64,000 bases of DNA from an uncultured bacterium (GTDB taxonomy: Bacteria > Patescibacteriota > Minisyncoccia > Phycocordibacterales > CAIZLB01): contig CAINHC010000001.1 of NCBI GenBank assembly GCA_903848795.1, positions 14,915 to 78,914 of the forward strand, read 5' to 3'. This document shows, piece after piece, positions 15,984 to 54,130 of this stretch. The translations under genes and the position numbers were made by a program. Numbering within the stretch: the first letter of the stretch is position 1; each line of letters opens with the position of its first letter. Under the pieces are notes generated by a model that had not been told where the DNA came from, made no database searches, and worked only from the letters and a program-made list of their open reading frames with translations.

Positions 15984-18059
15984 CTACTTCCCTAACACCC
16001 TATCCAAACTCATGTCATATTTTGAATCAGACTTTATTTGAGTATTTAGAGAGTATCCATTTGCGCTAACGACAGTGTTTGTAAAACTATCTGTTCCAGC
16101 AATCTTTTGGGAGTTAACGATAATCGGGGATTGATTAACTTGTGAGAGACTTGGTAAAAACTCAACTTGATAAGACATTTCCTTTGGATTAGAAATATAT
16201 CCAGTTCCTGGTGCAATGTCTCCAGCCTTCCAAGTGATTGTTCTATTAGCTGAATCGTACACAACAGTTGAACTAGCAGTTTCTGGTGAGACCTTACCCA
16301 ACCAATTAACATAAATTGGAAGTTTTGCAGTATAAATCAAACCCTTAACACTGTTGTATGAATTGCTAATTTTTACATTAACTGTATATGTTGTTTTAAC
16401 ATTTGCCTTGGTTGGCATTGGACCGGTGTTTGTGAATGGACCATCATAATAAAGCAAACCTGTATCCAGCCCGAGATCACTAACTATTCTAATCTTACGA
16501 GATGATTGTGATGTAACCTCTTCGGTAACCTTATTCTCATTCAATCGATTTCCTTTAACTGTAAAATTTAAAGTAATTTCAGGTCGTCTTATATTTGAAG
16601 CCAAGTCTTTTGTCAAATCAAAGATCTTCATATTGAAGTTCGAGGTTCCGCTTTTGTTTGGCGCTACATCTTCCATTTGAGGATCGTTACTCTTTTCCCA
16701 GTAGAGTGTATCGTTGTCAGACTTGTAAAATCCATTGGGGACCGCCACGCTATCTCTATCAACCATCAAACCAGAAAGTTTACCTTCAATGGAAACGTCG
16801 TGAATTGAAACATCGAGATTGTTTTTCCATAAAATTTCACCTTGCAATAATTGACCACTATTTGCAACAACAATTTCATCTCCACTTCCATTAACAGCGA
16901 CATCCGCACCCAAAAATGGTGCACTCAAATTAATTGTACTTATTGCTGAAGCAAAAGTTGTATCTATCTCATTGGGATTTTTATTCTGTGCAGTTCCTGC
17001 AAAAAATCTAACCGTTCGCTCTTGATTTGTTTGACCAAATATCTTTGCATTAATTTCAATCTTTTTAACCTCCCCTGGTGCAATATCCCCTAATCTCCAG
17101 TGATCAGTCGCCAAAGATGGATCTGGATCGGCAGAAACATAATCAAAGCCAAATGGGTATTCGGCACTAAGGACAACATCTTTAATAACATCAGCAGAGT
17201 TGGATTTAACAGATACTACAAATTTTGTAGCCTGCTCTGGAATAATTTCCTTCACAAAATCTACAGTGATTGAAACAGGCCCTGCCCCAATACCTATTGG
17301 ATAAGTCTTTTGCTTGGCGAATAAACTATTTGTCCCAGGAAGTTTGTATTCCAATGAAACGCTAATATTCTTTGTGGAACCTTCTTCGCCTAGGATAATA
17401 GACTTAACAGTCGTCCTTTGAGTTCCGCCAGCGGCTATAGTGCCGAGTGGAATTCTGTCAGTCACAAGACTTGTTACTTTATCATCTGCACGTCTTGTGC
17501 CGTCCGGATATGTCATTATCAAATCAACACCCTCCAATGCATCCGAATTGTTATTGAACACATTTACATCAAGCGACAATTCCTGTCCGGCGGAAATTAT
17601 AATTGGACCAGAAACACTGAGCTCAATATTGCTACCAGATATTATATTTGGGTTTATTGTAAAGTAGTAATAAGCGACCCCGGCGGCGATAATCAAGAAA
17701 ACAATAGAAAAGACTGTTAGACCTTTTAGAAAGGAGTATATTTTGGAGGCGTCGCTGTTTTTGTCGATGGACTTTGATTTTTCCGAAATTGCATTTCTAT
17801 TTGCCCTATTATCTAAATTGGAAACTGAAAAAGGGTCTTCTTTTTTCTTATTCTCTTCAATGGGTTCGCTATTCTTATTTCCTTCCTCATCATCCCAATC
17901 TCTATTTACAGAAACATGATGCTCATGCATTTTTACATGCTTCATCTTTGGCAAATCACCAGATGTAGAATCTAGTTTCTTTTTTAATTCCTCCATTTTT
18001 CCTTCGTCTTTCATGCGATAAATTATATCACCCTTTGGGTAATTAAGTACAATCACCAA
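15984..18059 (-). CDS. large cell-surface protein with beta-rich CARDB/DUF11-like repeats, hypothetical
   Basis: 691 aa. Charged N-terminus, one TM (VFSIVFLIIAAGVAYYYF), then an extracellular beta-rich region with repeated T-V-x-V-N-x-G patterns. No catalytic motif. Confidence 0.45.
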   Translation of the reverse strand: MVIVLNYPKGDIIYRMKDEGKMEELKKKLDSTSGDLPKMKHVKMHEHHVSVNRDWDDEEGNKNSEPIEENKKKEDPFSVSNLDNRANRNAISEKSKSIDKNSDASKIYSFLKGLTVFSIVFLIIAAGVAYYYFTINPNIISGSNIELSVSGPIIISAGQELSLDVNVFNNNSDALEGVDLIMTYPDGTRRADDKVTSLVTDRIPLGTIAAGGTQRTTVKSIILGEEGSTKNISVSLEYKLPGTNSLFAKQKTYPIGIGAGPVSITVDFVKEIIPEQATKFVVSVKSNSADVIKDVVLSAEYPFGFDYVSADPDPSLATDHWRLGDIAPGEVKKIEINAKIFGQTNQERTVRFFAGTAQNKNPNEIDTTFASAISTINLSAPFLGADVAVNGSGDEIVVANSGQLLQGEILWKNNLDVSIHDVSIEGKLSGLMVDRDSVAVPNGFYKSDNDTLYWEKSNDPQMEDVAPNKSGTSNFNMKIFDLTKDLASNIRRPEITLNFTVKGNRLNENKVTEEVTSQSSRKIRIVSDLGLDTGLLYYDGPFTNTGPMPTKANVKTTYTVNVKISNSYNSVKGLIYTAKLPIYVNWLGKVSPETASSTVVYDSANRTITWKAGDIAPGTGYISNPKEMSYQVEFLPSLSQVNQSPIIVNSQKIAGTDSFTNTVVSANGYSLNTQIKSDSKYDMSLDRVLGK

Positions 18060-22613: not shown

Positions 22614-22958
22614 TTACAAATGGTGGGCCTGCAAATATAAACAGATTTTGTTTTGGGCATCATGGATACTGCCGTTGATAGTTTTCCAGACCATTTTAAT
22701 ATCTATACTGAAATAGTCATGAGAAACTATATCTCTTAATCCCGTTATTTTCTTCCAAGGTATTTCAATTTCAGACAAAACGTCTTCCGGAATTCTTTTT
22801 GCTAATTCTCCAATTATTTGCAATTGCATAAGTACGGCGCTTTGAGTTTTTGAATCAATAGAAAATGAATCATAATCTAAACCTTCAATATATAGACCTA
22901 TTTTATTCATAGCCCCTAAAATAAGTTTTAAATAAGCTAGACTATCCTTGTTTTTCAT
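22614..22958 (-). CDS. hepT: HepT-like (DUF86) nucleotidyltransferase-substrate-binding toxin
   Basis: Rx4HxY motif (RDIVSHDY). ~114 aa. Overlaps the upstream MNT gene by 17 nt. Confidence 0.75.
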   Translation of the reverse strand: MKNKDSLAYLKLILGAMNKIGLYIEGLDYDSFSIDSKTQSAVLMQLQIIGELAKRIPEDVLSEIEIPWKKITGLRDIVSHDYFSIDIKMVWKTINGSIHDAQNKICLYLQAHHL

Positions 22959-23250
22959 CTTTATATAGAGGAATTAGATCTTTATAAATATAATCATGAA
23001 AATGAGAAATTACAGCGTCCTCGGACACCAAATCAACCTTTTTAGATAAAACCGCTTCTAATTTTTCTCTCAAATCAAAGAAATCTAATAGATCTATAGG
23101 TTTAGATATTTTAATCAAAATATCTACGTCACTTTCTGTATTATTATCTCCCCTAGCAAAACTACCAAACAAAGATGCACGCAAAACAAACTCCTGTTCC
23201 TTTAAGATTGGAGTGATTTTGTCTTTAATGTTTTGTATTTCATCTGTCAT
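22942..23250 (-). CDS. mntA: MntA-type minimal nucleotidyltransferase antitoxin
   Basis: LFGSFARGDNNTESDVDILI (GS…DxD NTase motif). Start moved to internal Met (MTDEIQNIK), because the first 20 codons of the ORF-track call are encoded by tandem direct repeats. Confidence 0.7.
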   Translation of the reverse strand: MTDEIQNIKDKITPILKEQEFVLRASLFGSFARGDNNTESDVDILIKISKPIDLLDFFDLREKLEAVLSKKVDLVSEDAVISHFHDYIYKDLIPLYKDEKQG

Positions 23251-23266
23251 GGTGAGATTATAGCAC

Positions 23267-23343
23267 CCGGTGGACGATTCTCCAAAATCGTCGTTTGGAC
23301 GATTCTCCAAAATCGCCCAGTAGGTGATTCACCAGAATCATCG
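23267..23343. repeat. tandem and palindromic GATTC-N-GAATC-type repeats upstream of mntA-hepT
   Basis: ggaCGATTCTCCAAAATCG occurs twice 26 bp apart, followed by GGTGATTCACCAGAATCA palindrome. Homologous ~100-bp block at 33229-33335. Confidence 0.6.
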
Positions 23344-25164
23344 TTACATCCTACTTGGCACCTTAATTCCCAAAACATTCAAACCATTAGTTAATACAGT
23401 CAGTACCGCCTTAGTTAGCAGAACCTTATATGGAGTCAAAATATCTCCCTCTACAACAATTTGAGTATTAGCATAAAAGGAATTAAATTCAGATGCGATG
23501 TCCAGCAAATATTGTCCAACATAATGGGGGGCATGTTCAGTCTCAGATCGCAAAAGGACCTCAGGGAATCTTACAAGCATCTTTTCTAACTTACCTCCCG
23601 CCCAATCTAGTTGGCAGATTTTTGGACTATTTGCATTATTCAAATCATTGTTCAAATCTCCTAGATTAATATCCTCCACGTTAATTGAAACACCCTGCTT
23701 CTTTGCTTTTTCTAATACAGATTTAGCACGCACACAAGAATATTGAAGGTATGGTCCCGAGTCACCCTCAAATGAAAGGGATTTTTGTGGATCAAATATT
23801 ATGTCCTTTCCAATTGTTTGTCTAAGTATCGTATATTTGATTGCCGCAACAGCGATTTGCTCTGCAATTTCCTTTCGCTCCCCAGCCCCAATCTCACGTT
23901 CTTTCATTTTTTCTAGTGCCAACTCAGTCATGTCATGCAGCATCGATTCCCCCGTAACAACATCTCCGGTTCTTGAAGACATCTTTCCTGTAGTCAGACG
24001 GAGCATTCCGTGTGATAGGTGAAAATTCTTCTTTGCAATTTCTGGATAAATTTGTTCAATGGCTTTATAAGAAACAGCCAAGACATTATCTTGTTCGTTA
24101 GCAGTAATTGTATAGGAAATATCGTATGGATCTTTATTGTATTTTAGAAGTGCCAAACCTACTTCCTTTGCCTCATAAGTCGGTAGACCAAATTTGTTTA
24201 TGAATACACGAGTGTTTAGTCCATAGTTTTCTCCCTTAAAGATAATAGCCCCTTCACTCTCTTCAAAAATCCCACTCTTTATTCCTTTCTGAACTTCCTC
24301 AAGCCCCACCACCGAGCTATCACTCTCAAAGAAATACTCGTTGAATTTAGTTCCAAGTACTTTGTAAATTTCCTCGAAGTGATCCATGCTCCATTTCTTT
24401 CCTAAATCATACAGAGCATTCATTTCGAAATCAGACTTATCATAAATCTTTTTATTTATTTCTTGAACAATAGCTTCATCCTCTGGATGATCCTTAAAAT
24501 GAGTTGCGCCTTTTGCGTATATTTTCCCCAAAAAGGCAACTTTATCGCTAAGTGACATTGAATCACTTGGCCACTCCATTCCCTCTTCCTTTTTTAGTAA
24601 ATCAAAACCGTAGAATGTAAAAGCAACATGCCTACCAACGTCCCCCTGATAGCAATATCTTTTAACATTTCCCCCAGACCACTCCCCAATTCTAGCCAAA
24701 GACTCACCGATTGCATTCGACATAAGATGCCCAATATGAAATTGTTTAAATGGGTTAGGGTCTGTATACTCGTAAATCATTTTCTTGCCATTGTGCAAGT
24801 TTGATTTTCCATAATTTTCTCCTCCTGACCCACCCTTAGTTTCATCCAATATTTCTTTTATCAATTCCAACGTAACCTCCTCCGTCATATAGAAGTTAAT
24901 GAATCCAGGACCCGCCACTTCAACTTTTTTAACACCACTCAATGAACCCCCAGAAATAAACACCTGAAGCTTTTCTAAAATTTGATTCGCTAACTCCACC
25001 GGCTTCACGCCAAGCTTTGGCGCCAATATCATAGCTACATTTGTCGAATAATCTCCATGAGATAAATCCCCCGGTCTGTCCAGTAGATTCTTTCCAGTCA
25101 AAAAATCGTCCTGCCCATGCTCTGAGACGGCCCCTAATATAGCTTCAATAATAACTTTATTCAT
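23344..25164 (-). CDS. argS: arginyl-tRNA synthetase
   Basis: 606 aa. HIGH-region (FHIGH-like LMSNAIGES…), ArgRS N-terminal add-1 domain, C-terminal DALR anticodon-binding domain ending in Met. Confidence 0.85.
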   Translation of the reverse strand: MNKVIIEAILGAVSEHGQDDFLTGKNLLDRPGDLSHGDYSTNVAMILAPKLGVKPVELANQILEKLQVFISGGSLSGVKKVEVAGPGFINFYMTEEVTLELIKEILDETKGGSGGENYGKSNLHNGKKMIYEYTDPNPFKQFHIGHLMSNAIGESLARIGEWSGGNVKRYCYQGDVGRHVAFTFYGFDLLKKEEGMEWPSDSMSLSDKVAFLGKIYAKGATHFKDHPEDEAIVQEINKKIYDKSDFEMNALYDLGKKWSMDHFEEIYKVLGTKFNEYFFESDSSVVGLEEVQKGIKSGIFEESEGAIIFKGENYGLNTRVFINKFGLPTYEAKEVGLALLKYNKDPYDISYTITANEQDNVLAVSYKAIEQIYPEIAKKNFHLSHGMLRLTTGKMSSRTGDVVTGESMLHDMTELALEKMKEREIGAGERKEIAEQIAVAAIKYTILRQTIGKDIIFDPQKSLSFEGDSGPYLQYSCVRAKSVLEKAKKQGVSINVEDINLGDLNNDLNNANSPKICQLDWAGGKLEKMLVRFPEVLLRSETEHAPHYVGQYLLDIASEFNSFYANTQIVVEGDILTPYKVLLTKAVLTVLTNGLNVLGIKVPSRM

Positions 25165-25331
25165 AGTGGTATATTATCATGCAATCGCAGAATCACAATA
25201 TCTATTTTGAAAAAATTTGACGATTCTGTTGAAAGTGCTATTATATATGAGTTCCCTTTATGGGGCTTTTAAGACCTGGTAAAACAGGCACGGTATAGTA
25301 ACGGCGAAAGCAAGCCAACTATACCGTCTAG

Positions 25332-25360
25332 AAAAAACCGTCTTGTACGGTTTTTTCTTT
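25332..25360. terminator. bidirectional terminator
   Basis: AAAAAACCGTcttgtACGGTTTTTT. Confidence 0.55.
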
Positions 25361-25411
25361 TGAATATTTTATAAATAGTGACGTATGATATTAGAAATAC
25401 TCACTTTTATT

Positions 25412-25798
25412 CTATAATCGATGAGCTTTTTTGACCGCATCTTTTACGGATGACAATAAATCGGGATCAATTTCTGGGGAACTCCTCAATCCTGTTTTAG
25501 AATCCCTAACGAGATATAGCCTCTCCAAACATACAACATTTATCATATCGCATTTTATCCAAGACTTTTTATTGTCTAGATGAATTGAACAAAACAGTGG
25601 ATCCATTTGTATGTGATAATCAAGCATTGGATCTGGCTTTGTTACACTTATTGGAACAACACTTATTAATTCTCTTGTTGTGCCTATGTTTTGAAATAAC
25701 AATCACAGGTCTTTTCTTGACCATTTCTGGCTCTATAAAACCTTCATAGTCACAATAGACTACCGACCCTGGTTTTGGTTGAAAATTTAACATTGCTC
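25412..25798 (-). pseudogene. frameshifted MazF/PemK-family toxin gene
   Basis: Frame A (from ~25798) encodes MLNFQPKPGSVVYCDYEGFIEPEMVKKRPVIVIS, a MazF N-terminus. Frame B (25412-25702) continues TTRELISVVPISVTKPD…CDMINVVCLERL, the MazF middle and C-terminal part. The frames join at an A4 run (tcaaaac, ~25690). No antitoxin ORF adjacent. Confidence 0.5.
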
Positions 25799-25938
25799 AC
25801 AATAATATTATATTTTTTATAAAACGTAAAATATAAAACAAAATCTAATCGTTTTATCACAAAGTATTGTTTCTAAATTATAGTACACAGCATTAGAACC
25901 TATTTATTTTAATCCATTGTTATATAATTTTTAAAAAA

Positions 25939-26277
25939 TTATTTTACATCAACAAACTTCCCGTTCTCAACCTTATACATTTCATACGCCGCCTCGGTTA
26001 GATCACCGTTTTTGTCAAAACCTATTGGACCGGTTGCACCCCTAAAATCTTTTAGGTCATAAAGATTATTTTTAAAACATTCGGAATCTGGTTTTTTACA
26101 TTTAGATAAGACACTTCCAATAGCCATGAGTGCATCATAAGATCTAGCGCCAACAGCCTGATTAATACTTGGGTAATCACTATAATACTTCTTGAAAGAA
26201 TCCTCAAACTTTTTAGCCTCTGTGGACAAAGAAGCACTCGGACCAAACAGGGGCGTGTTATTGTCGGCACACCTCAC
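25939..26277 (-). pseudogene. C-terminal fragment of a LivK/branched-chain amino-acid-type periplasmic binding protein
   Basis: 112-aa ORF with …FRGATGPIGFDKNGDL…YEMYKVENGKFV typical of the C-terminus of Peripla_BP_6 proteins. N-terminal ~250 aa absent and upstream region non-coding. Confidence 0.4.
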
Positions 26278-26495
26278 GGTTTGGTATCACAGCAAAAGAC
26301 TGGAGAGATACAAACCCGAAACTTGAAGGTAACATCAGAGACTATGCAAACGTTGTGTAAATACTTTCTCTTGCTTATAGGGGTTATTTCATCATTTGCA
26401 CGGCTCAAAATAAGCTTATGGTAGGTTATACAGCGATATTGTAGTATGACACTACAATACTTGCGTCACATTTGTTTATTTGATATACTAAATAC

Positions 26496-27620
26496 ATGTA
26501 TATAAACAGATTTCCAAAAATTGAAGATAAAATAGAGGCCGGCAAAGTGCTAGTTATTTATGGTGCCAGACAAGTAGGTAAATCTTCTCTTGTAAAACAT
26601 TACCTAGGTGGATTAGATGAAAAATACCTATTTTTCAACGGAGAAGACGTAAATGTTCAATCCATCTTTTCCTCTATGAATCTCAAGACACTAAACGAAG
26701 CTATTGGGAACACCAACCTGATCATCTTGGATGAAGCTCAAGTTATACCTAATGTTGGCACATCTCTTAAACTTCTAGTTGATACACACCCAAACCTAAA
26801 AGTAATTGCGACCGGATCTTCATCTTTTGAACTTTCAGGTCAAATTGGAGAACCCCTTGTTGGCAGAATGAATGTCATCACCCTATTCCCTTTTTGGGAA
26901 AAGGAGGTTGCAGAATCTCATTTAAATGATTTTATAGATAACATGGACTTCGCCTTACGCTTTGGTAGATACCCTGCAGTTGTAAAAACACAAATTATTG
27001 ATGAAAAAAAAGAAATCCTAACTAACATAGTCAATGGATATTTGCTCAAAGATATATTAGCCTTTGAAAGGGTTAAAAACTCCAAATTGATTTTAGATTT
27101 GCTCAAACTTCTCGCTTATCAAGTGGGAAGCGAGGTTTCTATTCACGAGATTGCCACCAGATTATCCATAGCGAGGGATACTGTAAATAGATTGCTTAAT
27201 TTGCTAGAACAAAACTTTATTATATTTTCCCTACGTTCTTATGCAAAAAACTTAAGAAATGAGATACGGAAGAAAGAAAAATACTATTTTTACGATCTTG
27301 GAATAAGAAATACTTTAATAGAGAATTTCAACGAGATAAGCACCAGAAATGATATGGGTGCCTTGTGGGAAAATTTCTTAATAGTAGAAAGGATTAAGAG
27401 AAATAAATATATAGAACCATATAAATCAATATATTTCTGGAGAAAATCTACTGGAGCAGAGGTTGATTTTATAGAAATATATAACGACACGATCAGCGGT
27501 TATGAATTCTCCATTAAAGAAAAGAGAAATAACAAATCCAAACAGTCCTGGGTCAATGACTACCCTAAATCTACATGGAAAAATATAAATATGGAAAACT
27601 ATAACGAGTTTATTATCTAA
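26496..27620 (+). CDS. AAA+ ATPase (AAA_14 / DUF4143 family), paralog of 9783-10931
   Basis: Walker A YGARQVGKSSLVKH. Same domain layout as the other copy. Confidence 0.65.
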   Translation: MYINRFPKIEDKIEAGKVLVIYGARQVGKSSLVKHYLGGLDEKYLFFNGEDVNVQSIFSSMNLKTLNEAIGNTNLIILDEAQVIPNVGTSLKLLVDTHPNLKVIATGSSSFELSGQIGEPLVGRMNVITLFPFWEKEVAESHLNDFIDNMDFALRFGRYPAVVKTQIIDEKKEILTNIVNGYLLKDILAFERVKNSKLILDLLKLLAYQVGSEVSIHEIATRLSIARDTVNRLLNLLEQNFIIFSLRSYAKNLRNEIRKKEKYYFYDLGIRNTLIENFNEISTRNDMGALWENFLIVERIKRNKYIEPYKSIYFWRKSTGAEVDFIEIYNDTISGYEFSIKEKRNNKSKQSWVNDYPKSTWKNINMENYNEFII

Positions 27621-27717
27621 ACCTACAAAACCTCACGGTTTTGTCCATGAGGTTTTGTTATGAGACCTTTACAGGCTCGATCAGGCTCGATTCCGAGTCC
27701 TATATAGAATAGGAAGA

Positions 27718-28143
27718 TTATGCTACAACGTCAATTCCCAAAGAAGCACATGTTCCCTCTATCATCTTCATGGCTCCTTCTATATCCTTTGAGTTCAGGT
27801 CAGGCATCTTTCTCTCTGCGATTGCCTTAACTTGAGCTTTTGTAATCTTTCCAACTTTCTTTGTATTTGGGTGACCTGATCCCTTCTCAACTCCAATTGC
27901 CTTTAGAACAAGAGAAGCTGCGGGAGGAGTCTTAAGAACAAAATCAAAAGTTCTATCCTCAAAAACTGAGATTACAACAGGAATAATGTCGCCTACCATA
28001 GTAGCTGTTGCATCGTTGAATCTTTTTACGAATTCACCAATGTTAACACCAGCTTGACCAAGTGCAGGACCTACCGGTGGAGCAGGATTTGCCTTTCCAG
28101 CAGGAATTTGTAATTTTAATGATTTGATTATTTTTTTTGCCAT
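27718..28143 (-). CDS. rplK: 50S ribosomal protein L11
   Basis: [35 protein letters not shown]…, highly conserved L11 N-terminus. No rplA follows. Confidence 0.9.
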
Positions 28144-28231
28144 AAATATATATTAATTGTTTTTCTTTATTTATGGCCACAAGACGCGAGAGAAGCGCAG
28201 GCGTATCTGGCCAAAGTTCTTATAAAATACC

Positions 28232-28774
28232 TTAAATTGTCTTAACTTGCAAGAAGTCCAGCTCAACAGGTGTCTCACGACCGAACATTGATACAAGGAC
28301 CCTAACCTTTCCTCTATCTGTATCAACCTCTGAAACCTTGCCTTCTAGGTCCTTAAATGGGCCGTCAGCCACCTTAACAAGGTCTCCGATGTTTAGATTA
28401 ATGGTGTGTTTTATGTTATCACTAGACATTCTTCTGAATAATTCCTCAACCTCCTTCTTCTCAAGAGGAACAGGAGTTGTACCAGAACCTACGAATCCAG
28501 TAACTCTAGGTGTATTTCTAACCATATACCACGTATCATCGTTCACGATCATATCCACCAAGATATATCCTGGGTAAATTTTTTCATCCTCCTCTATTCT
28601 TTTACTTCCCTTTATCTTAATCTTCTTTTCTGTTGGAACAATTACATTGAATATACGATCGTCCATACACAATGACTCAATACGCTGTTTGAGGTTTCTC
28701 ATAACGGCGTTTTCATATCCAGCGTATGTGTGAATTGCATACCAATTCCTCTCTCCTTGTTCTTGTTTTGACAT
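28232..28774 (-). CDS. nusG: transcription termination/antitermination factor NusG
   Basis: NGN domain (WYAIHTYAGYEN) and C-terminal KOW (GDLVKVADGPFKDLEGKVSEV). Confidence 0.9.
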   Translation of the reverse strand: MSKQEQGERNWYAIHTYAGYENAVMRNLKQRIESLCMDDRIFNVIVPTEKKIKIKGSKRIEEDEKIYPGYILVDMIVNDDTWYMVRNTPRVTGFVGSGTTPVPLEKKEVEELFRRMSSDNIKHTINLNIGDLVKVADGPFKDLEGKVSEVDTDRGKVRVLVSMFGRETPVELDFLQVKTI

Positions 28775-28794
28775 GGTTATTTAAAAATTAGCTT

Positions 28795-28983
28795 TTAAAA
28801 TGAACGTAATATAAAGCTTTTGAACAAGCCTGTAAAAACGGTATCAAGACCAGAAACATACAAAGCAACAACCAACGAAACAACAATAACTAGTGTTGTG
28901 TAAACAATAGTCTGCTTTCTTGTTGGCCAGCTTACATGTTTCATTTCTGATGTTGTCTCACTTATATATTGTTTTATTGACAT
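28795..28983 (-). CDS. secE: preprotein translocase subunit SecE
   Basis: 62 aa with KHVSWPTRKQT motif plus single TM. Directly upstream of nusG. Confidence 0.7.
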   Translation of the reverse strand: MSIKQYISETTSEMKHVSWPTRKQTIVYTTLVIVVSLVVALYVSGLDTVFTGLFKSFILRSF

Positions 28984-29220
28984 ATATTTTGGTATTTTAA
29001 AACACCCTTTCGGGCGCCTTTAGTTGTTATTTTAACACAAAGAAGTATATAGTGTAAAATGTCAAAAGTCAATATTTGACATTTAAATCGAATATTGCAT
29101 ACTAGCATATAGTTTTAGTACCATAGACAAATTTACTATACAAATCAGTCCCCCACCATCCTCCCCGAGGTTGGAAAATTGAGAGATTGAGAGTGTAGTC
29201 AATTCCACCAATTTAATAAA

Positions 29221-29454
29221 ATGTTCCAAAAATTTATTTCAAGCCCACAAGAAGTGATCACAGTTATGATTTCAATATCGTTTCTAATTGGATTTATAAA
29301 TTTTTTTGGCTATTGCCATCACAAGAAAATCAACCCAATGACGATGAATATCACCCACTTCCTCAAGATGTTCTTCGGTTTCGTGCTGATGGGACTATTT
29401 GGCCTAGCTATATATTTTACCATGAAGGATGACGAAGAGACCCATCATGGATAG
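29221..29454 (+). CDS. small membrane protein (77 aa, 2 TM), hypothetical
   Basis: Two hydrophobic helices. Followed by strong terminator at 29476-29505 (AACCCCGCCattcGGCGGGGTT + T-run). Confidence 0.4.
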   Translation: MFQKFISSPQEVITVMISISFLIGFINFFGYCHHKKINPMTMNITHFLKMFFGFVLMGLFGLAIYFTMKDDEETHHG

Positions 29455-29475
29455 AACTCAAAAGTGTCTTACACT

Positions 29476-29505
29476 TAACCCCGCCATTCGGCGGGGTTAA
29501 TTTTA
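29476..29505 (+). terminator. rho-independent terminator
   Basis: AACCCCGCCattcGGCGGGGTTaatttt. Confidence 0.65.
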
Positions 29506-29591
29506 TACCAAAACAAAAAAGACCATTCTATTAAGGTCTTTAATGAATTTGTATCATGCAGACGCAGATGTCGAGCTGACACTGAATAAAT

Positions 29592-30554
29592 CTATTTTAT
29601 ACTATAAGTAACACTCACATCAGACGTAATTTTATCTTCCCCAACAGGTAAATTAGCAGACAATGAATCAGCTGCGCCTACCATTTTTTCACTCATCATA
29701 ACGGGGTATGGATATCCACCACCTGCATTTTCAGAAAAAGATGTTACCTTACCCAATTTTACCCCCAGGGCGCTGGCGATATCGACGGCCTGAAGTTTTG
29801 CTTTTTGAATAGCCTGACCCTGAAGAGATTGTTTTATCTTATCCATATTATCTACAAAGCTTGCAAGGTCATTGACAGTAACCCCAGCATTTCCAACCAA
29901 ATTAACTAAAGTACCAGCCAAATCTGGATTTTTACTTATTTCTGTGATTTTTACTTCCATCGATTGATTGGTCTCGTATCCAACAATCTCTGATGTTCTA
30001 TCGACACAGGCAGAAACAGAAGACACAGATGGAGCAACCTGAATAGTTGATACTGAGGTGGGTGCACCAATCATCTTACTTGCAGAAACCGCAGAAGGAG
30101 CTTTAGCAGAAGAAATTAAGGTCGCCACCTTCCCCTTCACAACAGTCGCTTGGGCTGATGAACAAGAAGTAGTTCTCGAACTATATTTTGGATATGTATT
30201 AAAATTTAATGTCTTAATATTTTTATCTAAAACTCCATTTTGTTTTAGGATAACAATAGCAGAATTTATTTTATTTGTCGTAGCATCTTGCGATGACTTA
30301 ATATCCTTTCCAAATTCTGTTACTGATATTGTAAATTTTGTAGTGTCTGGCTTCACGCTAATTTCACTATGACCTGATACAGTGATAGTATTTTGATTTA
30401 TATTCCCACCCCCCTTGTCTTCTGTTGAAATTTTAGATATAGCAAGAATGGTTACTGACAATATGAATAAAATTGAAACGAATTTTAATAATGAATTTAG
30501 TTCTAGGATTTTTTTTGACTCATTAGTATTTTTAATATCTTTTTTGATTACCAT
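29592..30554 (-). CDS. SIMPL domain (DUF541) protein, membrane-anchored
   Basis: ITVSGHSEISVKPD motif typical of SIMPL/BP26 family. N-terminal TM. Start set at MVIKKD (30554) to avoid 52-nt overlap with folD. Confidence 0.55.
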   Translation of the reverse strand: MVIKKDIKNTNESKKILELNSLLKFVSILFILSVTILAISKISTEDKGGGNINQNTITVSGHSEISVKPDTTKFTISVTEFGKDIKSSQDATTNKINSAIVILKQNGVLDKNIKTLNFNTYPKYSSRTTSCSSAQATVVKGKVATLISSAKAPSAVSASKMIGAPTSVSTIQVAPSVSSVSACVDRTSEIVGYETNQSMEVKITEISKNPDLAGTLVNLVGNAGVTVNDLASFVDNMDKIKQSLQGQAIQKAKLQAVDIASALGVKLGKVTSFSENAGGGYPYPVMMSEKMVGAADSLSANLPVGEDKITSDVSVTYSIK

Positions 30555-30561
30555 ACATACA

Positions 30562-31557
30562 TTATAGCAGAGAATCATGAAAAGATTCAAATAAGTTTTC
30601 AAAGAGAGACGCAACTGTCAGTGGACCAACACCACCTGGCACTGGAGTGATAGCTTTCGCAACATTAGAAACATCATCAAACGCAAAATCTCCACATATC
30701 TTTCTAAGATTTTCACTTTCGCCGACTGAAATATCAACAGACGTAATCCCAACATCAATTAAAATTTGATCATAAGATAAAAAACTCTTATCAATAAAGC
30801 CGGGAGCTCCAATTGCTGATATTAAAATGTCCGAGGCTTTAGTTATTTCTTTTAGATTAAAAGTTTTAGAATGACAAATCGTAACGGTTGCATCTTTCGC
30901 CAACATAACAAGAGCAATCGGCTTGCCCACCAAAACAGATCTTCCAATTATGCAAACTCTTTTACCTACAACATCAATATCATATTCATTTAACAAACTC
31001 AAAACCCCCTTGGCCGTTGCTGGAATGAAGCCTTTAAATATAGTTTTTTTAAATTTATCTATTTTTTCATTCAAGAACTCAGATGCATTGAAAGCCTGAA
31101 CTGAAAAAATAGAGGTCTCACTGTCGCCCACAGATTCATCTGCTTTAAAATTTCTTTGAACCAATAGCCCAAGACTCGTACTACTTAATCCATCTACATC
31201 TTTTCTGTAATCAATTGCGTTCGTAATGTTATGAACCAATAGGTGCCTTGGCAGTGGTAGCTGAACAATTATTCCATGTACAGAATCATCATTATTATAG
31301 TTTTGAATCTCCGCAATTAAATCAGATTCACTTACATACTCCGGTAACATAATATGCAAAACTTCTGCACCGATATACTCAGCAAACTTTTTCTTTTGAC
31401 CAATATAAACAGTAGAAGCTTTATTGTCCCCTATTTGAAATATTACGAGCGTTGGAGGAATAAAACTATCCCCCTCTCTTTCTTTTATCTCATTAATACG
31501 AGAACGTAAATTCTCTTTCTTATTATCTCTGATATCTATTCCTCGAAGTAAAATCAT
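30562..31557 (-). CDS. folD: bifunctional methylenetetrahydrofolate dehydrogenase/cyclohydrolase FolD (with ~40-aa internal insertion)
   Basis: …STVYIGQKKKF…GIIVQLPLP…YRKDVDGL…VCIIGRSVLVGKPIALVML…GITPVPGGVGPLTVA conserved FolD blocks. 331 aa versus ~285 typical. Confidence 0.85.
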   Translation of the reverse strand: MILLRGIDIRDNKKENLRSRINEIKEREGDSFIPPTLVIFQIGDNKASTVYIGQKKKFAEYIGAEVLHIMLPEYVSESDLIAEIQNYNNDDSVHGIIVQLPLPRHLLVHNITNAIDYRKDVDGLSSTSLGLLVQRNFKADESVGDSETSIFSVQAFNASEFLNEKIDKFKKTIFKGFIPATAKGVLSLLNEYDIDVVGKRVCIIGRSVLVGKPIALVMLAKDATVTICHSKTFNLKEITKASDILISAIGAPGFIDKSFLSYDQILIDVGITSVDISVGESENLRKICGDFAFDDVSNVAKAITPVPGGVGPLTVASLFENLFESFHDSLL

Positions 31558-31596
31558 TTTGTTGAATTTGAAATTTGAAATATCTATTAAAAATAC

Positions 31597-32328
31597 CTAT
31601 TTAATTTGAAACGAAGCCTTGACTGTAACCATCACATCTTTGTCGATAGTTGAAGTATCATAAGATCCATAATCAGACACATCATTAGAACCAGAAGTCA
31701 TAACCTGAACAACACCCGCTCCTGCTGATTTTATTTTTCCAACCGAGCTTCCTGCCGGTTTAACAATTGCATCAGCTCTTGCTTTAGCGTCCTTAAGTGC
31801 TTCTGGTAATAAACTAACCTTAATGTCCTGCAGACCGGAGAAATAATATTCAGGATTTTGTGGAGAAACAACAACACCAGCAAAAATCAAATCTTTTATA
31901 TTCTTAGACATAGTATCAACCAACTTAACATCACTCGATGAAATACTAATTGTCTGACTAAGATTGTACTTTTTTACTGATGAACTTGGATTGCTTTCGT
32001 AAACTTCATTCATAAGAACTGGAGTAATTTTCAAATCAGCTTCATTGAAACCATTTTTAACAAAAAAAGCTTTAACTATTTTCAAATCGCTATCCATTTG
32101 GGTATACCCGTCCTTTACTGTATCAAGCGTCACCGGTCTCATAAAATTAATTGACCACTTAGCTTGATCTGCAATAACGCTCTTTCTGGCGGACCCAGTC
32201 ACTGAAACCGAATCATCCATCGCCTTTATACTATAAAAAGCATAGGCACCGATAATGGCCGATAAAAGTATTGCAACACCAATTACAAAACTTGATTTAA
32301 ACATTTGAGATTTATTTTCTGTATTCAT
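31597..32328 (-). CDS. SIMPL domain (DUF541) protein, second paralog
   Basis: SVSVTGSARKSV SIMPL motif. N-terminal TM. 243 aa. Confidence 0.55.
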   Translation of the reverse strand: MNTENKSQMFKSSFVIGVAILLSAIIGAYAFYSIKAMDDSVSVTGSARKSVIADQAKWSINFMRPVTLDTVKDGYTQMDSDLKIVKAFFVKNGFNEADLKITPVLMNEVYESNPSSSVKKYNLSQTISISSSDVKLVDTMSKNIKDLIFAGVVVSPQNPEYYFSGLQDIKVSLLPEALKDAKARADAIVKPAGSSVGKIKSAGAGVVQVMTSGSNDVSDYGSYDTSTIDKDVMVTVKASFQIK

Positions 32329-32410
32329 ATCTAAAGTCTATAACACAAAGGTATATAATACAATGAAGAGCGCGCAATACGAAATACCGCAAGACATGTC
32401 GAGTTTAGAC

Positions 32411-33211
32411 CTATAATCCAAAGGCAGACAGCAGAATCAAAAACAAGACACCGACGATAATTCTATAATAGGCAAATCCAATAAAATTATGCTTCTGGAT
32501 GTAACTTATAAATCCCTTGATTGCCAAAATAGCAACAATGAAAGCTGTAATGAAACCTGTTGCCAATAGAACAATCTCATTGTGACCAATTTCCCCTACC
32601 CCCTTATACAAATCCAAAAAAGATGCAGCTAGCATTGTTGGTATAGCAAGAAGGAAAGAAAATTCTACGATGTCCGAACGAGAGACTCCAGAGATTTGTC
32701 CTCCAATGATTGTTGCAGCAGATCTTGAAACCCCAGGAACCATAGCAATCGCTTGGTAAAAACCAACCTTAACAGCTTGCGTGTAGCCAACATTTAAGTC
32801 ACCATTCAGACCATGCTGAATATTTAATCTGGACTGATACTTTGCATTGCGTTTCTCAAACCAAATTATCAAGATACCACCGACTATTGATGAGATGGAG
32901 ACTACCCAAGAACTACCGAGCAAATACTTCTTGACTACACCATGTAGTGCCAAACCGAGAATTGCTGTAGGGATAAACGCGACAATCACCTTTTTTATTG
33001 TATCTTTAGAGGTTATCAATCTTTTAAAATATAAGACAACAACGGAGAGTATTGCACCAAGCTGAATAAATATTTCAAAGGTCTTCAAAAAATCTGTCTC
33101 TTGTAACCCCAATAACTTGGAAGCTAATATCATATGACCAGTGGAGGATATCGGTAAAAACTCTGTAACACCTTCAATTATACCTAAAATTATTGCGTGG
33201 ATTATATTCAT
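32411..33211 (-). CDS. uppP: undecaprenyl-diphosphatase UppP/BacA
   Basis: GVTEFLPISSTGHMIL N-terminal motif. 8 TM. 266 aa. Confidence 0.9.
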   Translation of the reverse strand: MNIIHAIILGIIEGVTEFLPISSTGHMILASKLLGLQETDFLKTFEIFIQLGAILSVVVLYFKRLITSKDTIKKVIVAFIPTAILGLALHGVVKKYLLGSSWVVSISSIVGGILIIWFEKRNAKYQSRLNIQHGLNGDLNVGYTQAVKVGFYQAIAMVPGVSRSAATIIGGQISGVSRSDIVEFSFLLAIPTMLAASFLDLYKGVGEIGHNEIVLLATGFITAFIVAILAIKGFISYIQKHNFIGFAYYRIIVGVLFLILLSAFGL

Positions 33212-33228
33212 AGAGACATTGTATCATC

Positions 33229-33335
33229 AGGTGGGCGATTCTCAAAAATCCCCCACTGAAAGAGAATGCTGGCGATTCTGCTGAATCGTAACCAAAATTA
33301 TTATTTGGGTGATTACCCAAAATATTCGTGATAAA
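33229..33335. repeat. intergenic block of palindromic repeats homologous to 23267-23343
   Basis: gggCGATTCTCAAAAATC …tgGCGATTCTGCTGAATCG… GGGTGATTACCCAAAAT, same order of three units as upstream of mntA. Confidence 0.6.
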
Positions 33336-33908
33336 TTAATCATTATTTAACTCCCTCTTTTTAAAGAAGTTCTCAAATATGAAAACGGAAATGGATGAAA
33401 TTAGTAATCCAAGAACAATACCCACTATTACATCGCTCAAATAATGAACAGATAAATATACCCTACTAAACGCAATGGTAAGTGCCAACAGTGAAAGAAT
33501 TATAATAAACAACATTCTTAAAAAAATATTTCTAATGTGATCCTTGTACGCAAATATTAGCAATGAACAAAATAGGGTTGCGATAGCTGCATGGCCACTT
33601 GGAAATGAATACCCATCAACCTGAACAATTGCTTCAAGTGGACGTGTCCGAGCGATTAAAACTTTCATAATATATACGGTTAAGGCGCCAACTCCCAGGG
33701 TTATAAAAAACTGTAGCAAATAATACGGTTTCTTATACAACCAAAACAACATAGCGGTTGCAATCGTCAATAGTAAAAATGATTGAGGACTTCCCACACT
33801 ACTCACAAATAAAGCCACTTTAACACCAAACGGGGTTATAAAAGATGGCATCCAGCCTATAACATTCAAATCAATTTTATGAGCCAGTAGAAGAAAAAAA
33901 GAATTCAT
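33336..33908 (-). CDS. PAP2 family phosphatase (PgpB-like)
   Basis: PAP2 motifs KxxxxxxRP (KVLIARTRP), SFPSGH, SRVYLSVHYLSD. Multi-TM. Confidence 0.75.
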   Translation of the reverse strand: MNSFFLLLAHKIDLNVIGWMPSFITPFGVKVALFVSSVGSPQSFLLLTIATAMLFWLYKKPYYLLQFFITLGVGALTVYIMKVLIARTRPLEAIVQVDGYSFPSGHAAIATLFCSLLIFAYKDHIRNIFLRMLFIIILSLLALTIAFSRVYLSVHYLSDVIVGIVLGLLISSISVFIFENFFKKRELNND

Positions 33909-37682: not shown

Positions 37683-37946
37683 CTAGTACTTTCCACACTT
37701 TTTATCATTCTTAATTAATTCTAGTTTTTGCTCTTTTTTCCACCTTTTAATTTCCGCCTCCCTACCTCGAGCTTCATTTAGGGTCTGGAAGGTTTCCGAA
37801 TATTTCAAAAATACTGGGCGTCTAATTTTTGTGTAATGCGCGCCGGATTTTAGGTTATTATGTTGATTGAGTCTTTTTTCAAGGTCATTAGTGCAACCGA
37901 CATACAGGGTCTTATCAGCACATTCGAGGATGTAGACGGTGAACAT
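37683..37946 (-). CDS. GIY-YIG nuclease family protein (UPF0213-like)
   Basis: FTVYILECADKTLYVGCTNDLEKRLNQHN GIY-YIG motif. 87 aa. Confidence 0.75.
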   Translation of the reverse strand: MFTVYILECADKTLYVGCTNDLEKRLNQHNNLKSGAHYTKIRRPVFLKYSETFQTLNEARGREAEIKRWKKEQKLELIKNDKKCGKY

Positions 37947-42632: not shown

Positions 42633-43401
42633 ATTCTCTAACGGAAGTATTCTTTGTACGATAAAACACTGACTCATAGGATAAAGGTTGACCATATAGA
42701 GCGGTAATCCACGGAACATCCTCATGGGAATAATTACTCAGTTCAACTGCGGATTTATCTGAAAGACGAGAAATAACCTCATCAATATGCTTTATTTCAT
42801 TGGCATTTAATACAGAGATGTCGGACGCTCTTCGTGGTAAATACTTTGTTTGTTCATGTAGAAAGTACTTACTCTTGACTGTCTCAAGCTCCCCCTTGGA
42901 CTCCATCAATTTTACAATTTCCTTAAACTCTACTGGAGTTGGTCCAAAATGGTTCTTAATATATGTTGCTCCAATTAGCTGTTCTTCAAATTTTTCATAA
43001 TAGTCAAAATCAATAAAATAAAGGAGTTTATACAAAACAGTCATTCCCACATTGGACTTACTTCCAACTTTTTCTAGGACATACAGAAGCACCTCTTTAA
43101 ACTTCTTTAGATTTTTTTGCGGTACATCAATACGAATTTCTTGTTTTTCTTTCTTCTTGGATTCATTTGATTCATCAGATATATATACCTTAACATCTGA
43201 AGTTTTTTTACCAGAAATAAGATCTTCTAGAGAAATATTAAAAATCTCAGCGATCTTACTCGCCTCTCCGACGGTTAGCTCTTTTGCCCCTTTTTCGACC
43301 TCTATATAACTTGCTCTTGAAATACCAATTTTTTCAGCAACAAAAGCCTGAGAGACGCCTTGGTTGTTTCTAAGTTCTATTAAAAATTTGCCTTTAATCA
43401 T
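42613..43401 (-). CDS. XRE-family HTH plus Panacea (DUF4065) domain antitoxin
   Basis: N-terminal HTH (LRNNQGVSQAFVAEKIGISRASYIEVEKG). C-terminal LYKLLYFIDFDYYEKFEEQLIGATYIKNHFGPTP matches DUF4065/Panacea. Confidence 0.7.
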   Translation of the reverse strand: MIKGKFLIELRNNQGVSQAFVAEKIGISRASYIEVEKGAKELTVGEASKIAEIFNISLEDLISGKKTSDVKVYISDESNESKKKEKQEIRIDVPQKNLKKFKEVLLYVLEKVGSKSNVGMTVLYKLLYFIDFDYYEKFEEQLIGATYIKNHFGPTPVEFKEIVKLMESKGELETVKSKYFLHEQTKYLPRRASDISVLNANEIKHIDEVISRLSDKSAVELSNYSHEDVPWITALYGQPLSYESVFYRTKNTSVREYELDNL

Positions 43402-43489
43402 GACTACATTATATACCCATTATGAATGATGTCAATATAATATACATGCTCATTGTACATAAAACTTACAATCGTAAATATATTCCAAG

Positions 43490-43572
43490 TGCGCGAGAGA
43501 GGATTTGAACCTCCACGCCCTTACGGGCACTACCACCTCAAGGTAGCGAGTCTACCGTTTCTCCACCCGCGC
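43490..43572 (-). tRNA. tRNA-Leu (GAG), long variable arm
   Basis: Acceptor GCGCGGG/CTCGCGC, anticodon arm CTACC-TTGAGGT-GGTAG, variable arm TGCCCGTAAGGGCGT, T-arm GGAGG-TTCAAAT-CCTCT. Confidence 0.8.
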
Positions 43573-43663
43573 ATGGGTATATTATGCATAAAAGCCAACA
43601 ACAAAACAAGATCACTTGAGTGGTCTTGTTTTGTGTTTATCGATAGTGAATGATTTATTTAAA

Positions 43664-44212
43664 TTATTCTGTAGCTGTAGCCTCCTCTGCTGTTGCCTCT
43701 ACTGCCTCTACTACTTCCACCTCAGGCTCTAGCACGGCTGTTGCAGCTTCCTCTGCTTCTAGTCTTGCAGCTTCTGCTTTAGTTAGATGAGATGAATCAC
43801 GCTTTGTCATTTCCATCTTCATTCTCTTACTAATTTCCTTAGCCGCTTTGTCTCTAATGTAGTAAAGCTTAGCACGACGAACCTTGGCACGCTTTGTAAC
43901 TTCTATTTTATCAATATTAGGTGAGAACAACGGGAAGATTCTTTCTACTCCATAGCCTCCTGAAACCTTTCTAACGGTAAAAGTACCTCCAGCTTCACTT
44001 CCATGCTTTCTAGCAAGAACAAGACCCTCAAAAACCTGAAGACGAGTCTTGCCTTTTTCTTGAATTTTTTGATACACCTTAACCGTATCGCCTACGCGCA
44101 TATCAAAATCCTTTCTAGTAGCATCTGTTTTAGCCACCTTAACCTCCTTTTTAACTGTTTTTATAGCTGCTGTCATAGGGAGCAATATAGCAGAGATGCT
44201 GGGTTTTTGCAA
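43664..44212 (-). CDS. rplS: 50S ribosomal protein L19 with Glu/Ala-rich C-terminal extension
   Basis: [36 protein letters not shown]…[28 protein letters not shown]…KLYYIRD matches L19. ~65-aa acidic tail. Confidence 0.85.
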
Positions 44213-44223
44213 ATACGACGCGA

Positions 44224-44319
44224 CCGCCTCTCAGCCCACCCAAGAGCACGCCAATTCTCTGCTGAGAATTGGCTCTGCTCACTGCAGTTCGCAAGTCTCT
44301 TGGGTGGGCTGAGAGGCGG
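44224..44319. repeat. GC-rich perfect 23-bp-stem hairpin with nested TTC-TGCT-GAA mini-hairpin (rplS leader / alr 3' region)
   Basis: CCGCCTCTCAGCCCACCCAAGAG (44224-44246) is the exact reverse complement of 44297-44319. The 50-nt loop contains CCAATTCTCTGCTGAGAATTGG. Homologous loop with different stem at 46681-46794. Confidence 0.7.
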
Positions 44320-44356
44320 CCTTGCTGTTGTGGTAAAACGAGCATTTAATACAAAA

Positions 44357-45499: not shown

Positions 45500-45504
45500 T
45501 ATTA

Positions 45505-46386: not shown

Positions 46387-46390
46387 ATGA

Positions 46391-46463
46391 GGGCGATTAG
46401 CTCAGTTGGTAGAGCAACTCATTTACACTGAGAAGGTCAGGGGTTCGAGTCCCTTATCGCCCA
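46391..46463 (+). tRNA. tRNA-Val (TAC)
   Basis: Acceptor GGGCGAT/ATCGCCC, D-arm GCTC-AGTTGGTA-GAGC, anticodon loop TTTACAC, T-loop TTCGAGT. Confidence 0.85.
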
Positions 46464-46473
46464 CAAAACAAAA

Positions 46474-46501
46474 ATAACAGGAATTTATTCCTGTTATTTT
46501 T
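46474..46501 (+). terminator. terminator after tRNA-Val
   Basis: AACAGGAATttaTTCCTGTT + TTTTTCG. Confidence 0.55.
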
Positions 46502-46652
46502 CGTTTGTGTTGGGGCGATAGGAGGTGCCTTGAGTCACCTCCGCAAGGGACGAGAAAAGCTTTGCTATATTTTCGAGAATCTGAAAGATTCGAGAAAATT
46601 GCAAAGGTGTACTGGGGCTGCGATTCAGCAGAATCGCCTACTGGGTAAGCCC

Positions 46653-46672
46653 CGAGTCCCTTATCGCCCACA
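46653..46672. repeat. direct repeat of the tRNA-Val 3' end (CGAGTCCCTTATCGCCCACA), 20/20 identical to 46446-46465
   Basis: Exact 20-bp copy of T-loop-to-3'-end sequence located 187 bp downstream of the tRNA, an att-like arrangement. Confidence 0.75.
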
Positions 46673-46680
46673 ATTCACTC

Positions 46681-47073: not shown

Positions 47074-47107
47074 CTCTCGAGCCCAAAATTAAAACGCCTT
47101 TCGGCGT

Positions 47108-47179: not shown

Positions 47180-47213
47180 ACTACAAGAGCATGCATGTAC
47201 AATAGCATATTTT

Positions 47214-51810: not shown

Positions 51811-51930
51811 AATGTAAGCATAGCATGAAACTTTTTAACTTTTAAATTTTAAATTTGAAGAGATATTTATCAAAATACACAATAGGTGATATAGCAATAT
51901 CATCTACTGAGTGATATAATAATTTTAATC

Positions 51931-54039: not shown

Positions 54040-54130
54040 ATGTATTGCAAACAATAGCAGAAAAGTTGTTTTTTGACAACTGCACGATTGACTTATAGGA
54101 ACGGGCGCCAGTAGGTGGTATAATATCCTC

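Follow-up and report, generated by a model that had tools for sequence, protein, structure and literature searches.

The window analysed here, a 64,000-nucleotide stretch of about 37% G+C with the majority of its genes on the minus strand, matches contigs of lake-metagenome genomes (e.g., GCA_903994605.1), and its UppP protein is 55–59% identical to proteins labelled Candidatus Pacebacteria, Parcubacteria, Magasanikbacteria and “Patescibacteria group”, which suggests a CPR/Patescibacteria organism. Two arrays of short repeats, at 23271–23345 and 33232–33330, lie between co-directional minus-strand genes, the first between argS and mntA-hepT and the second between a PAP2 phosphatase gene and uppP. 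A preliminary description of this DNA had noticed the blocks that contain them (23267–23343 and 33229–33335) and had placed them, along with palindromes at 44250, 46622 and 46706 and the region upstream of argS (25190–25245), in one dispersed family of short palindromes that would be either REP-like elements or binding sites of one regulator.

None of the 49 ATG-start genes in the window is preceded by a Shine-Dalgarno-like sequence (8.6% of controls are), and 27 of them (55%) have TANNNT 4–10 nt upstream (mode 6), compared with 18% of control ATGs. As far as sequence can tell, this implies widespread leaderless mRNAs and promoters that would rely on an extended −10 box and have hardly any −35 signal. 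In the ordinary promoters of the window, the information is confined to TGnTAnnnT, with almost none upstream of the TGn −10, so the ~30 conserved bases found upstream in the promoter cassettes described below represent something extra. Cassette and promoter geometry can also correct gene starts: the longest-ORF start of rplS (43664–44212, minus strand) is probably wrong, the likely start being an ATG near 44177 that follows an TGCTATATT-N7 promoter as in the relative L068, and the same is probably true of a DUF11 surface-protein gene (15984–18059, minus strand), where cassette geometry makes 18014 the most likely start and not the TTG at 18059.

The repeats greatly exceed the frequency expected in AT-rich DNA, a comparison that the preliminary description had itself proposed. 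GATTC-N4-GAATC occurs four times in the 64-kb window where 0.08 occurrences are expected, and none of 100 shuffles reached four; TTCTGCTGAA is also present four times (0.20 expected), and the 16-mer CGATTCTCCAAAATCG, with up to three mismatches, nine times (0.8 expected). A repeat search joined 23271–23345 (three exact 25-nt periods), 33232–33256 and 33306–33330 into one family of 25-nt units, and a weight-matrix scan gave seven strong copies at only three loci: three at 23271–23345, three at 33232–33330 and one at 46622–46640. Both methods thus bear out the relationship first proposed between the two blocks, and all seven strong copies, like every clear unit copy in the window, are intergenic, as had also been described; CCCAGTAGG, however, lies at 23316–23324 and not at 23294. 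The looser pattern GATT-N6-AATC is weakly enriched (eight found, 2.5 expected; two of 100 shuffles reach eight), and this, together with several single matches inside genes, is what speaks for a chance recurrence of AT-rich words. The stricter patterns are nonetheless far above expectation and a 38-nt architecture recurs with E = 1e-8 to 1e-13 in related genomes only (below), and we consider the probability of chance to be negligible. Hits at 18666, 19352 and 57272 are inside coding sequence, look like chance matches and were not accepted as members.

The building block of the arrays is a ~25-nt palindromic unit, (T)GGRCGATT-N6-AATCGYCC(A), with the dyad core GATT-N6-AATC (its 26-bp form is TTGGACGATTTTGGAGAATCGTCCAA). 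One to five such units stand head-to-tail with a period of ~25 nt, and the gene-adjacent unit is 12–13 nt upstream of an extended −10 box, TGnTAnAAT (TGnTAnnAT across relatives). We call this assembly a cassette; its total length of ~40 to 140 nt varies by whole units. Because of the 12–13-nt distance, the central hexamer of the gene-adjacent unit (TTGGAG, TTGAGA, TTGGCA or TTAGTA) falls at the −35 position with a 16–17-bp spacer, and the best sites in a sigma-70 scan coincide with the mntA and uppP cassette promoters (10 of 12 matches with the TG; TGGAGA-16-TATAAT at mntA). The −10 box is of the ordinary housekeeping type common to the other window promoters. It lies 6–8 nt from the ATG in nine of the 13 scored cassettes (the others have 11, 13 and 38 nt, and one is without an ORF), and with 6 nt between them transcription would begin on the A of the ATG to give a leaderless mRNA. 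Since this geometry is consistent with it, we take the cassettes to be probable promoters with leaderless starts. In addition to the two arrays, the window contains members that the preliminary description had not listed, which brings its content to two clear, one single-unit and two decayed cassettes among ~27 promoters recognisable by their −10 box (Table 1). One further unit is an orphan, whose 24-mer GATTCAGCAGAATCGCCTACTGGG (46622–46645) recurs without a mismatch as a unit of the uppP cassette in the relative L069.

Table 1. Positions of cassettes, cassette parts and other structured elements in the window.
Feature	Position	Strand	Description
mntA-hepT cassette	23257..23345	−	three units, between argS stop and mntA start
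mntA units	23271–23295 (gene-adjacent), 23296–23320, 23321–23345	−	25 nt each
mntA dyad cores	23276–23289, 23301–23314, 23326–23339	−	GATT-N6-AATC
mntA −35-like hexamer	23280–23285	−	TTGGAG
mntA extended −10	23257–23262 (hexamer)	−	TGCTATAAT; 6 nt at 23251–23256; ATG 23250–23248
mntA gene-adjacent unit through −10		−	GACGATTTTGGAGAATCGTCCACCGGGTGCTATAAT-CTCACC-ATG
uppP cassette	33218..33330	−	three units, between PAP2 phosphatase gene stop and uppP start
uppP dyad core, gene-adjacent	33237–33250	−	centre TTTGAG
uppP dyad core, middle	33274–33287	−	perfect palindrome CGATTCAGCAGAATCG
uppP dyad core, distal	33311–33324	−	degenerate TATT...AATC; also fits terminator pattern for upstream PAP2 gene
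uppP −35-like hexamer	33240–33245	−	TTGAGA
uppP −10	33218–33223 (hexamer)	−	TGATACAAT; 6 nt; ATG 33211–33209
uppP gene-adjacent unit through −10		−	GGGGATTTTTGAGAATCGCCCACCTGATGATACAAT-GTCTCT-ATG
DUF11 surface-protein gene cassette	18022..18054	−	one unit
DUF11 cassette, unit	18041–18054	−	GATTgtacttAATT
DUF11 cassette, spacer and −10	18022–18027 (TATAAT)	−	13-nt spacer ACCCAAAGGGTGA; TATAAT; 7 nt; ATG 18014
Decayed cassette, 160-aa gene (start 51931)	51888..51920	+	GATAtagcaaTATC, 13-nt spacer ATCTACTGAGTGA, TATAAT; partial profile match at 51899–51920
Decayed cassette, ruvA (start 54131)	54086..54124	+	CCAGTAGGTGGTATAAT spacer/−10 kept, 6 nt, ATG; dyad degraded
Orphan unit and linker	46620..46646	+	GCGATTCAGCAGAATCGCCTACTGGGT, without −10 box, inside tRNA-like element after tRNA-Val
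Long complex hairpins	44205–44338, 46681–46794		114–134 nt; palindromes 44251 and 46709 are inner stem-loops
tRNA-like element, tRNA-Val(TAC)	46513–46673	+	
tRNA-like element, tRNA-Arg(TCT)	46952–47088	−	
tRNA-like element, tRNA-Arg(GCG)	52549–52685	+	

Relatives of the cassettes were sought with the query GATTTTKGAGAATCGYCCA in one scan of a genome collection (23 loci) and one of a metagenome collection (33 loci), roughly 17 matches being expected by chance in the genome scan by our estimate. Most of the 56 matches (Methylomonas, Sutterella, Acidimicrobiales, Daviesbacteria and others) were rejected: each is a lone copy that lacks an in-register −10 box, in unrelated DNA that is usually richer in G+C. 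The same architecture is present at thirteen loci of 33–44% G+C, each with one to five units. Cassette loci come from one uncultured genome assembly with three exact scan matches (L022, L028 and L030), a second genome assembly (L027) and metagenome contigs (L039, L040, L042/L065, L044, L045, L050 and L058), and two more (L066 and L069) were fetched through their UppP homologs. In all, 17 cassettes of fixed geometry (15 in our tabulated set, plus those of L066 and L069) are found in about ten related genomes and metagenome contigs, and a profile that runs from the nearest unit to the −10 box has full-length matches only in cassette loci (E = 1e-8 to 4e-13, with one at 5e-6).

The genes downstream of the cassettes are mutually unrelated: mntA-hepT, uppP, purF, prgI, two dsbA-like genes, a methyltransferase gene, the DUF11 gene and genes of unknown function. 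Non-homologous genes follow cassettes even within one genome (mntA, uppP and the DUF11 gene in the window; purF, prgI and a function-unknown gene in the related assembly), and cassettes are kept in front of orthologs of uppP (the window, L066 and L069), purF (L027, L028 and L058), a function-unknown gene (L030 and L039) and dsbA-like genes (L040 and L044). Cassettes are few, with 2 to 5 in the 64 kb of the window, any per-genome figure being an extrapolation from short stretches. At L042, a cassette with two full units and a truncated third (852–931, minus strand) points into the 3′ end of a convergent 269-aa ORF (11–820, plus strand), which resembles a DDE-type (integrase-core) transposase; an insertion has probably separated this cassette from its gene, and such a layout would explain the missing downstream gene there. 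A weak Alp7A_C match of the L030 protein (E = 5e-4, below cutoff) is not a credible basis for a centromere or iteron function of the units.

Comparison of the PAP2-uppP interval among relatives shows filled and empty sites. In the window, L066 (UppP 77% identical) and L069 (81%) the gap between the two genes is 116–142 nt and is entirely cassette, and the three cassettes differ in unit number and type. In L068, L070 and L071 (UppP 67–73% identical) the gap is 8 nt and a plain TATAAT promoter is inside the 3′ end of the PAP2 gene; the gap is also 8 nt in the contig of P0012 (UppP 75% identical), and the uppP cassette is absent in relatives with UppP identity of 75% or less. The mntA ortholog of L071, which is in the same place, has a plain TGTTATAAT-N6-ATG promoter and no units, and the DUF11 promoters of L066, L070 and L071 keep TATAAT-N7-ATG, with the unit present only in the window; no cassette was found in the 56 kb available from L068, L070 and L071. 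Since more distant relatives have plain promoters or the 8-nt gap at these three loci, the cassette was acquired and is not ancestral. Filled sites differ from empty ones in that the sequence upstream of the −10 box is replaced, and the comparison revealed no terminal inverted repeats or target-site duplications at uppP, mntA or the DUF11 gene. We infer that the cassette is lineage-specific and has replaced plain promoters in one sub-clade of a Patescibacteria (CPR) lineage. The region upstream of argS, once thought to be a relative of the arrays, aligns with an ordinary, ancestral argS promoter, ATTGCATGATAATAT-N6/7-ATG, that is conserved in cassette-free relatives, and we do not count it as a member.

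Clear insertion relative to relatives is also what a selfish REP/REPIN- or MITE-like hairpin repeat would produce, if it had spread via single-stranded hairpins (for example with a Y1/RAYT-type transposase) and its link with promoters were incidental or secondary. The units are indeed short palindromes with 5–10-bp arms around a 4–6-nt centre, are found only between genes, occur in identical form in unrelated contexts and in some cases are flanked by GTAG/CTAC, which recalls the REP tetranucleotide. GTAG is, however, beside only a minority of units, the units are arranged head-to-tail and not as inverted doublets (the sole inverted unit among the tabulated arrays is the distal one of L030), their 12–13-nt register with the −10 box is strict in all cassettes, their copy number is low, the terminal repeats and target duplications of such elements are absent, and there is no Y1-transposase among the Pfam annotations of genes in the ~22.6–55.5 kb part of the window. 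We therefore regard spread of this kind as improbable, and the REP-like label first given to the family does not suit head-to-tail, low-copy arrays that keep a constant distance to a −10 box and a start codon. The repeats do exist, but they are the building blocks of a probable promoter module and not a REP-like hairpin family.

Which parts of the unit are constrained was examined with 34 unique unit sequences (15 gene-adjacent and 19 upstream), or 37 units in an enlarged set. The half-sites GATT and AATC hardly vary (~2 bits), upstream units included, in contrast to the variable linkers and N6 centre. Gene-adjacent centres are −35-like; upstream centres (CAGCTG, CTGCTG, CTGGTG, TAGCAA, TTACAA) tend to extend the palindrome to GATTC-N4-GAATC or GATTT-N4-AAATC. 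In the 37-unit set the flanking pair −1/+1 is C-G in 22 units and T-A in seven, and the pair −2/+2 is unconstrained, with G.T in nine units and A.C in eleven. Since G.T and A.C are about equally frequent and there is no strand bias, these values favour symmetric recognition of duplex DNA over an RNA hairpin. Each unit includes one GANTC site (GAATC), but the window shows no avoidance of GANTC (237 observed, 219 expected) and the idea of a methylation target was dropped.

The mismatch values bear directly on the possibility that the units act as RNA hairpins at the 3′ ends of upstream transcripts, where they would provide exonuclease protection, termination or processing and insulate the downstream gene. 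The arrays do begin 7–20 nt from the upstream stop codon, every unit can form a hairpin, and the distal uppP unit fits a terminator pattern (a hairpin, then TAATAATTTT). It is the only unit that does so; the mntA array has no intrinsic terminator pattern (a G+C-rich hairpin with a T-run), units are generally without a T-run, and classic hairpin-plus-T terminators exist elsewhere in this genome, for example after tRNA-Val. Single-unit cassettes exist, neither strand is favoured by the mismatches, and the fixed −10 register has no explanation at the RNA level. We judge an RNA function of this type to be very improbable. With Rfam 15, only tRNAs reached the gathering score, and nothing overlapped a cassette at E-value limits of 1 (22900–33500) and 10 (43400–47300).

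The array structure suggests how the units arise. The −10 box is about one repeat period (25–27 bp) downstream of the start of the nearest unit and often reads GGTGATA, which resembles a unit start, so the arrays look like tandem duplications of the upstream half of the promoter. Half-unit duplications in L069, four identical units in L050 and the 24-mer common to the L069 cassette and the orphan unit are signs of turnover, and we think that arrays probably change quickly, by whole- and half-unit slippage and by exchange of units between loci. The arrays are identical in the ~18 near-identical assemblies compared, which show no copy-number variation, and phase variation was accordingly discarded as an explanation; its sole hint is a run of N that interrupts the uppP array in one assembly (L067, 1574–1583) and may reflect repeat-number heterogeneity.

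We think it probable that the cassette is a composite promoter specific to this lineage, that it works at the DNA level when transcription is initiated, and that its dyads are operators of one putative dimeric regulator. Units would duplicate in tandem from the upstream half of a promoter, and the cassette would displace plain promoters at several unrelated genes; a dimeric regulator on the nearest dyad would then cover the −35 region, with the upstream units adding cooperative sites. The suggestion of the preliminary description that the palindromes are binding sites of one regulator is compatible with the invariant symmetric half-sites, the variable centre and the fixed position at the promoter, the cognate protein itself being putative. 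The XRE-Panacea regulator, a candidate, has no such site in its own promoter. We know of no match between the dyad and the consensus sites of Fur/Zur, LexA, ArgR, CodY or PurR; these operators (the Fur/Zur 7-1-7 arrangement, the LexA Cheo box, the ARG box, and the CodY and PurR boxes) misfit in half-site sequence or spacing and were set aside. Several observations do not sit easily with a regulator-bound array: the 25-bp period is not a whole number of helical turns, so that proteins bound to successive units could not easily cooperate on one face of the DNA, TTGGAG makes a poor −35 hexamer (perhaps dispensable with a TGn-extended −10 box), arrays of identical units could be neutral products of slippage, and the downstream genes have no clear common function.

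A rival reading is a special core-promoter class with no dedicated regulator, in which −45 to −7 would be read directly by RNA polymerase, by means of upstream contacts or of a sigma factor that is alternative or divergent, and replication slippage would have produced the additional upstream units, either as neutral copies or as a means of tuning dosage. Conservation extends from the dyad through CCA-N3-GGGTG to the −10 box and includes spacer positions that a regulator would not need, although common descent of the copies explains this equally well; units identical to the gene-adjacent one have multiplied (L040, L042 and L050), and the −10 box is in phase with the repeat. On the other hand, the −10 box is the ordinary housekeeping type, as in all other window promoters, and older upstream units keep GATT and AATC and lose the TTGGAG centre, which indicates that the constraint is on the arms of the dyad and not on a −35 hexamer. 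We consider a core-promoter class of this kind to be rather unlikely, and the operator reading remains the one we prefer. A more speculative extension, which we would also place on the unlikely side, is that the 25-bp unit is a self-propagating promoter module that docks by microhomology in register with existing −10 boxes and so rewires unrelated leaderless genes to a lineage-specific regulator; units begin with GGTGATT or GACGATT, which is similar to the extended −10 box common here (TGATAnAAT), so arrays could dock in this way.

Not all of the palindromes first described belong with the cassettes. Those at 44251, 46622 and 46709 are present as described, but the first and last belong to two long complex hairpins (Table 1), which form a structured family separate from the cassettes. 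Both hairpins fold far better than shuffled sequences (z = −9.6 and −8.6), and they share their interior sequence but have entirely different outer stems. A third copy, in L070 (2050–2156, minus strand), is directly after tRNA-Val, has compensatory changes and a TGGT loop, and is orthologous to the 46681 copy; it was found by reading the sequence, and a pattern search of the fetched loci for more long hairpins returned none. When the three copies are aligned, compensatory change is seen at 21 of 36 pairs, and the conserved parts are an inner TTC-TG(C/G)T-GAA hairpin and a GCTC..TCGCAAG segment. The TTC-TG(C/G)T-GAA core is common to both families, so the link made in the preliminary description was not baseless, but we could not show that it is more than coincidence. 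Treating all the palindromes as one family had merged the cassette units with unrelated hairpins and the argS promoter, and missed that the element itself is a probable promoter. Behind tRNA-Val, both the 46681 hairpin and its L070 ortholog finish with a T-run and may be elaborate terminators; the 44205 hairpin is between alr and the rplS promoter, relatives are without alr there, and three assemblies break at its centre.

Three tRNA-like elements of 140–160 nt each follow a tRNA gene and a small terminator (Table 1). The 3′ end of the respective tRNA is repeated in each, and in the tRNA-Val element the 5′ acceptor strand as well; the predicted fold has an acceptor-like stem, one hairpin and a T-arm-like stem with two inserted hairpins (z = −6.5, −6.1 and −4.4). 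The two Arg-linked elements share 85% identity. In L068 and L070 no such element follows the corresponding tRNAs, and Rfam, phage records and viral contigs contain no match; tRNA-like RNAs or miniature integrated elements are both conceivable. Neither the cassette nor the tRNA-linked region has a match in 50,697 phage records or in IMG/VR viral contigs.

Other features of the window were noted in passing. Its isoleucyl-tRNA synthetase (18737–22570, minus strand; 1277 aa) has a histidine-phosphatase (PF00300) domain inserted between segments of the catalytic domain, an arrangement also present in L066, L070 and L071. A stand-alone 87-aa GIY-YIG gene (37683–37946, minus strand) adjoins tRNA-His; it is present in some otherwise identical assemblies and missing in L002, which suggests that it is mobile and homing-endonuclease-like. 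A 26-nt sequence, GCTTTCGCTTTTGAAGCCGAACACTT, occurs in two intergenic places in opposite orientation (18088–18113 and 46850–46875; 96% complementary). Across the whole window GCNGC is roughly twofold depleted (51 observed, 99 expected) and CCNGG reaches 0.64 of its expectation, depletions that may come from restriction-modification pressure.

Patescibacteria (CPR) are uncultivated and encode few regulators, and to our knowledge almost nothing is known of how their transcription is organised or regulated. What the window points to is a set of genes that lack ribosome-binding sites, promoters positioned to give leaderless mRNAs, and the recent displacement of ordinary promoters by a modular cassette at several genes. 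Should a single protein bind the dyads, the cassettes define a candidate regulon and a bait sequence for its regulator; if the units spread on their own, they offer a clean natural case of promoter propagation for which both filled and empty sites are available. If docking by microhomology is true, it would be a transposase-free, one-step route to regulon growth in minimal CPR genomes.

Among known systems, the REP/BIME/REPIN elements of proteobacteria are similar in being short, imperfect intergenic palindromes that are sometimes clustered and can form hairpins. They are present in hundreds of copies, often as inverted pairs and mostly at gene 3′ ends, none of which holds for the cassette; they are linked to RAYT transposases, of which the Pfam annotations of the ~22.6–55.5 kb part of the window show none; and they have no fixed register with promoters, whereas the gene-adjacent cassette unit is 12–13 nt from the −10 box. 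In Neisseria, Correia (CREE) elements come in discrete sizes, are bounded by terminal inverted repeats of 26 bp and carry a TA target duplication; like them and other promoter-carrying MITEs, the cassettes are small dispersed repeats able to supply promoter elements to their neighbours, but they have neither terminal inverted repeats nor a target duplication, and their length changes by whole units. By analogy, the closest mechanistic counterpart is an operator array that overlaps a promoter, such as the repeated sites of Fur type or the iteron and centromere repeats in front of plasmid rep and par operons. There too, symmetric sites are repeated, the one nearest the gene overlaps the −35 region and the upstream copies could support cooperative binding; the cassette genes are, in contrast, ordinary chromosomal ones and not rep or par, the period is 25 bp and the cognate protein is putative.

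The closest concept, again by analogy, is that of putative mobile promoters (Matus-Garcia, Nijveen and van Passel, Nucleic Acids Res 2012; PMC3488235), the survey of which required 50–100 nt at 80% identity or more. Like these (PMC3488235), the cassettes are homologous non-coding sequences directly upstream of non-homologous genes in one genome and its close relatives, hold a predicted promoter and appear to have replaced earlier ones. They differ in that only a core of 36–40 nt is conserved and highly similar, beyond which 25-nt units vary in number and type, so that the length asked for in the survey is not clearly attained, and they depart from the definition of putative mobile promoters in being modular tandem palindromes in a leaderless setting.
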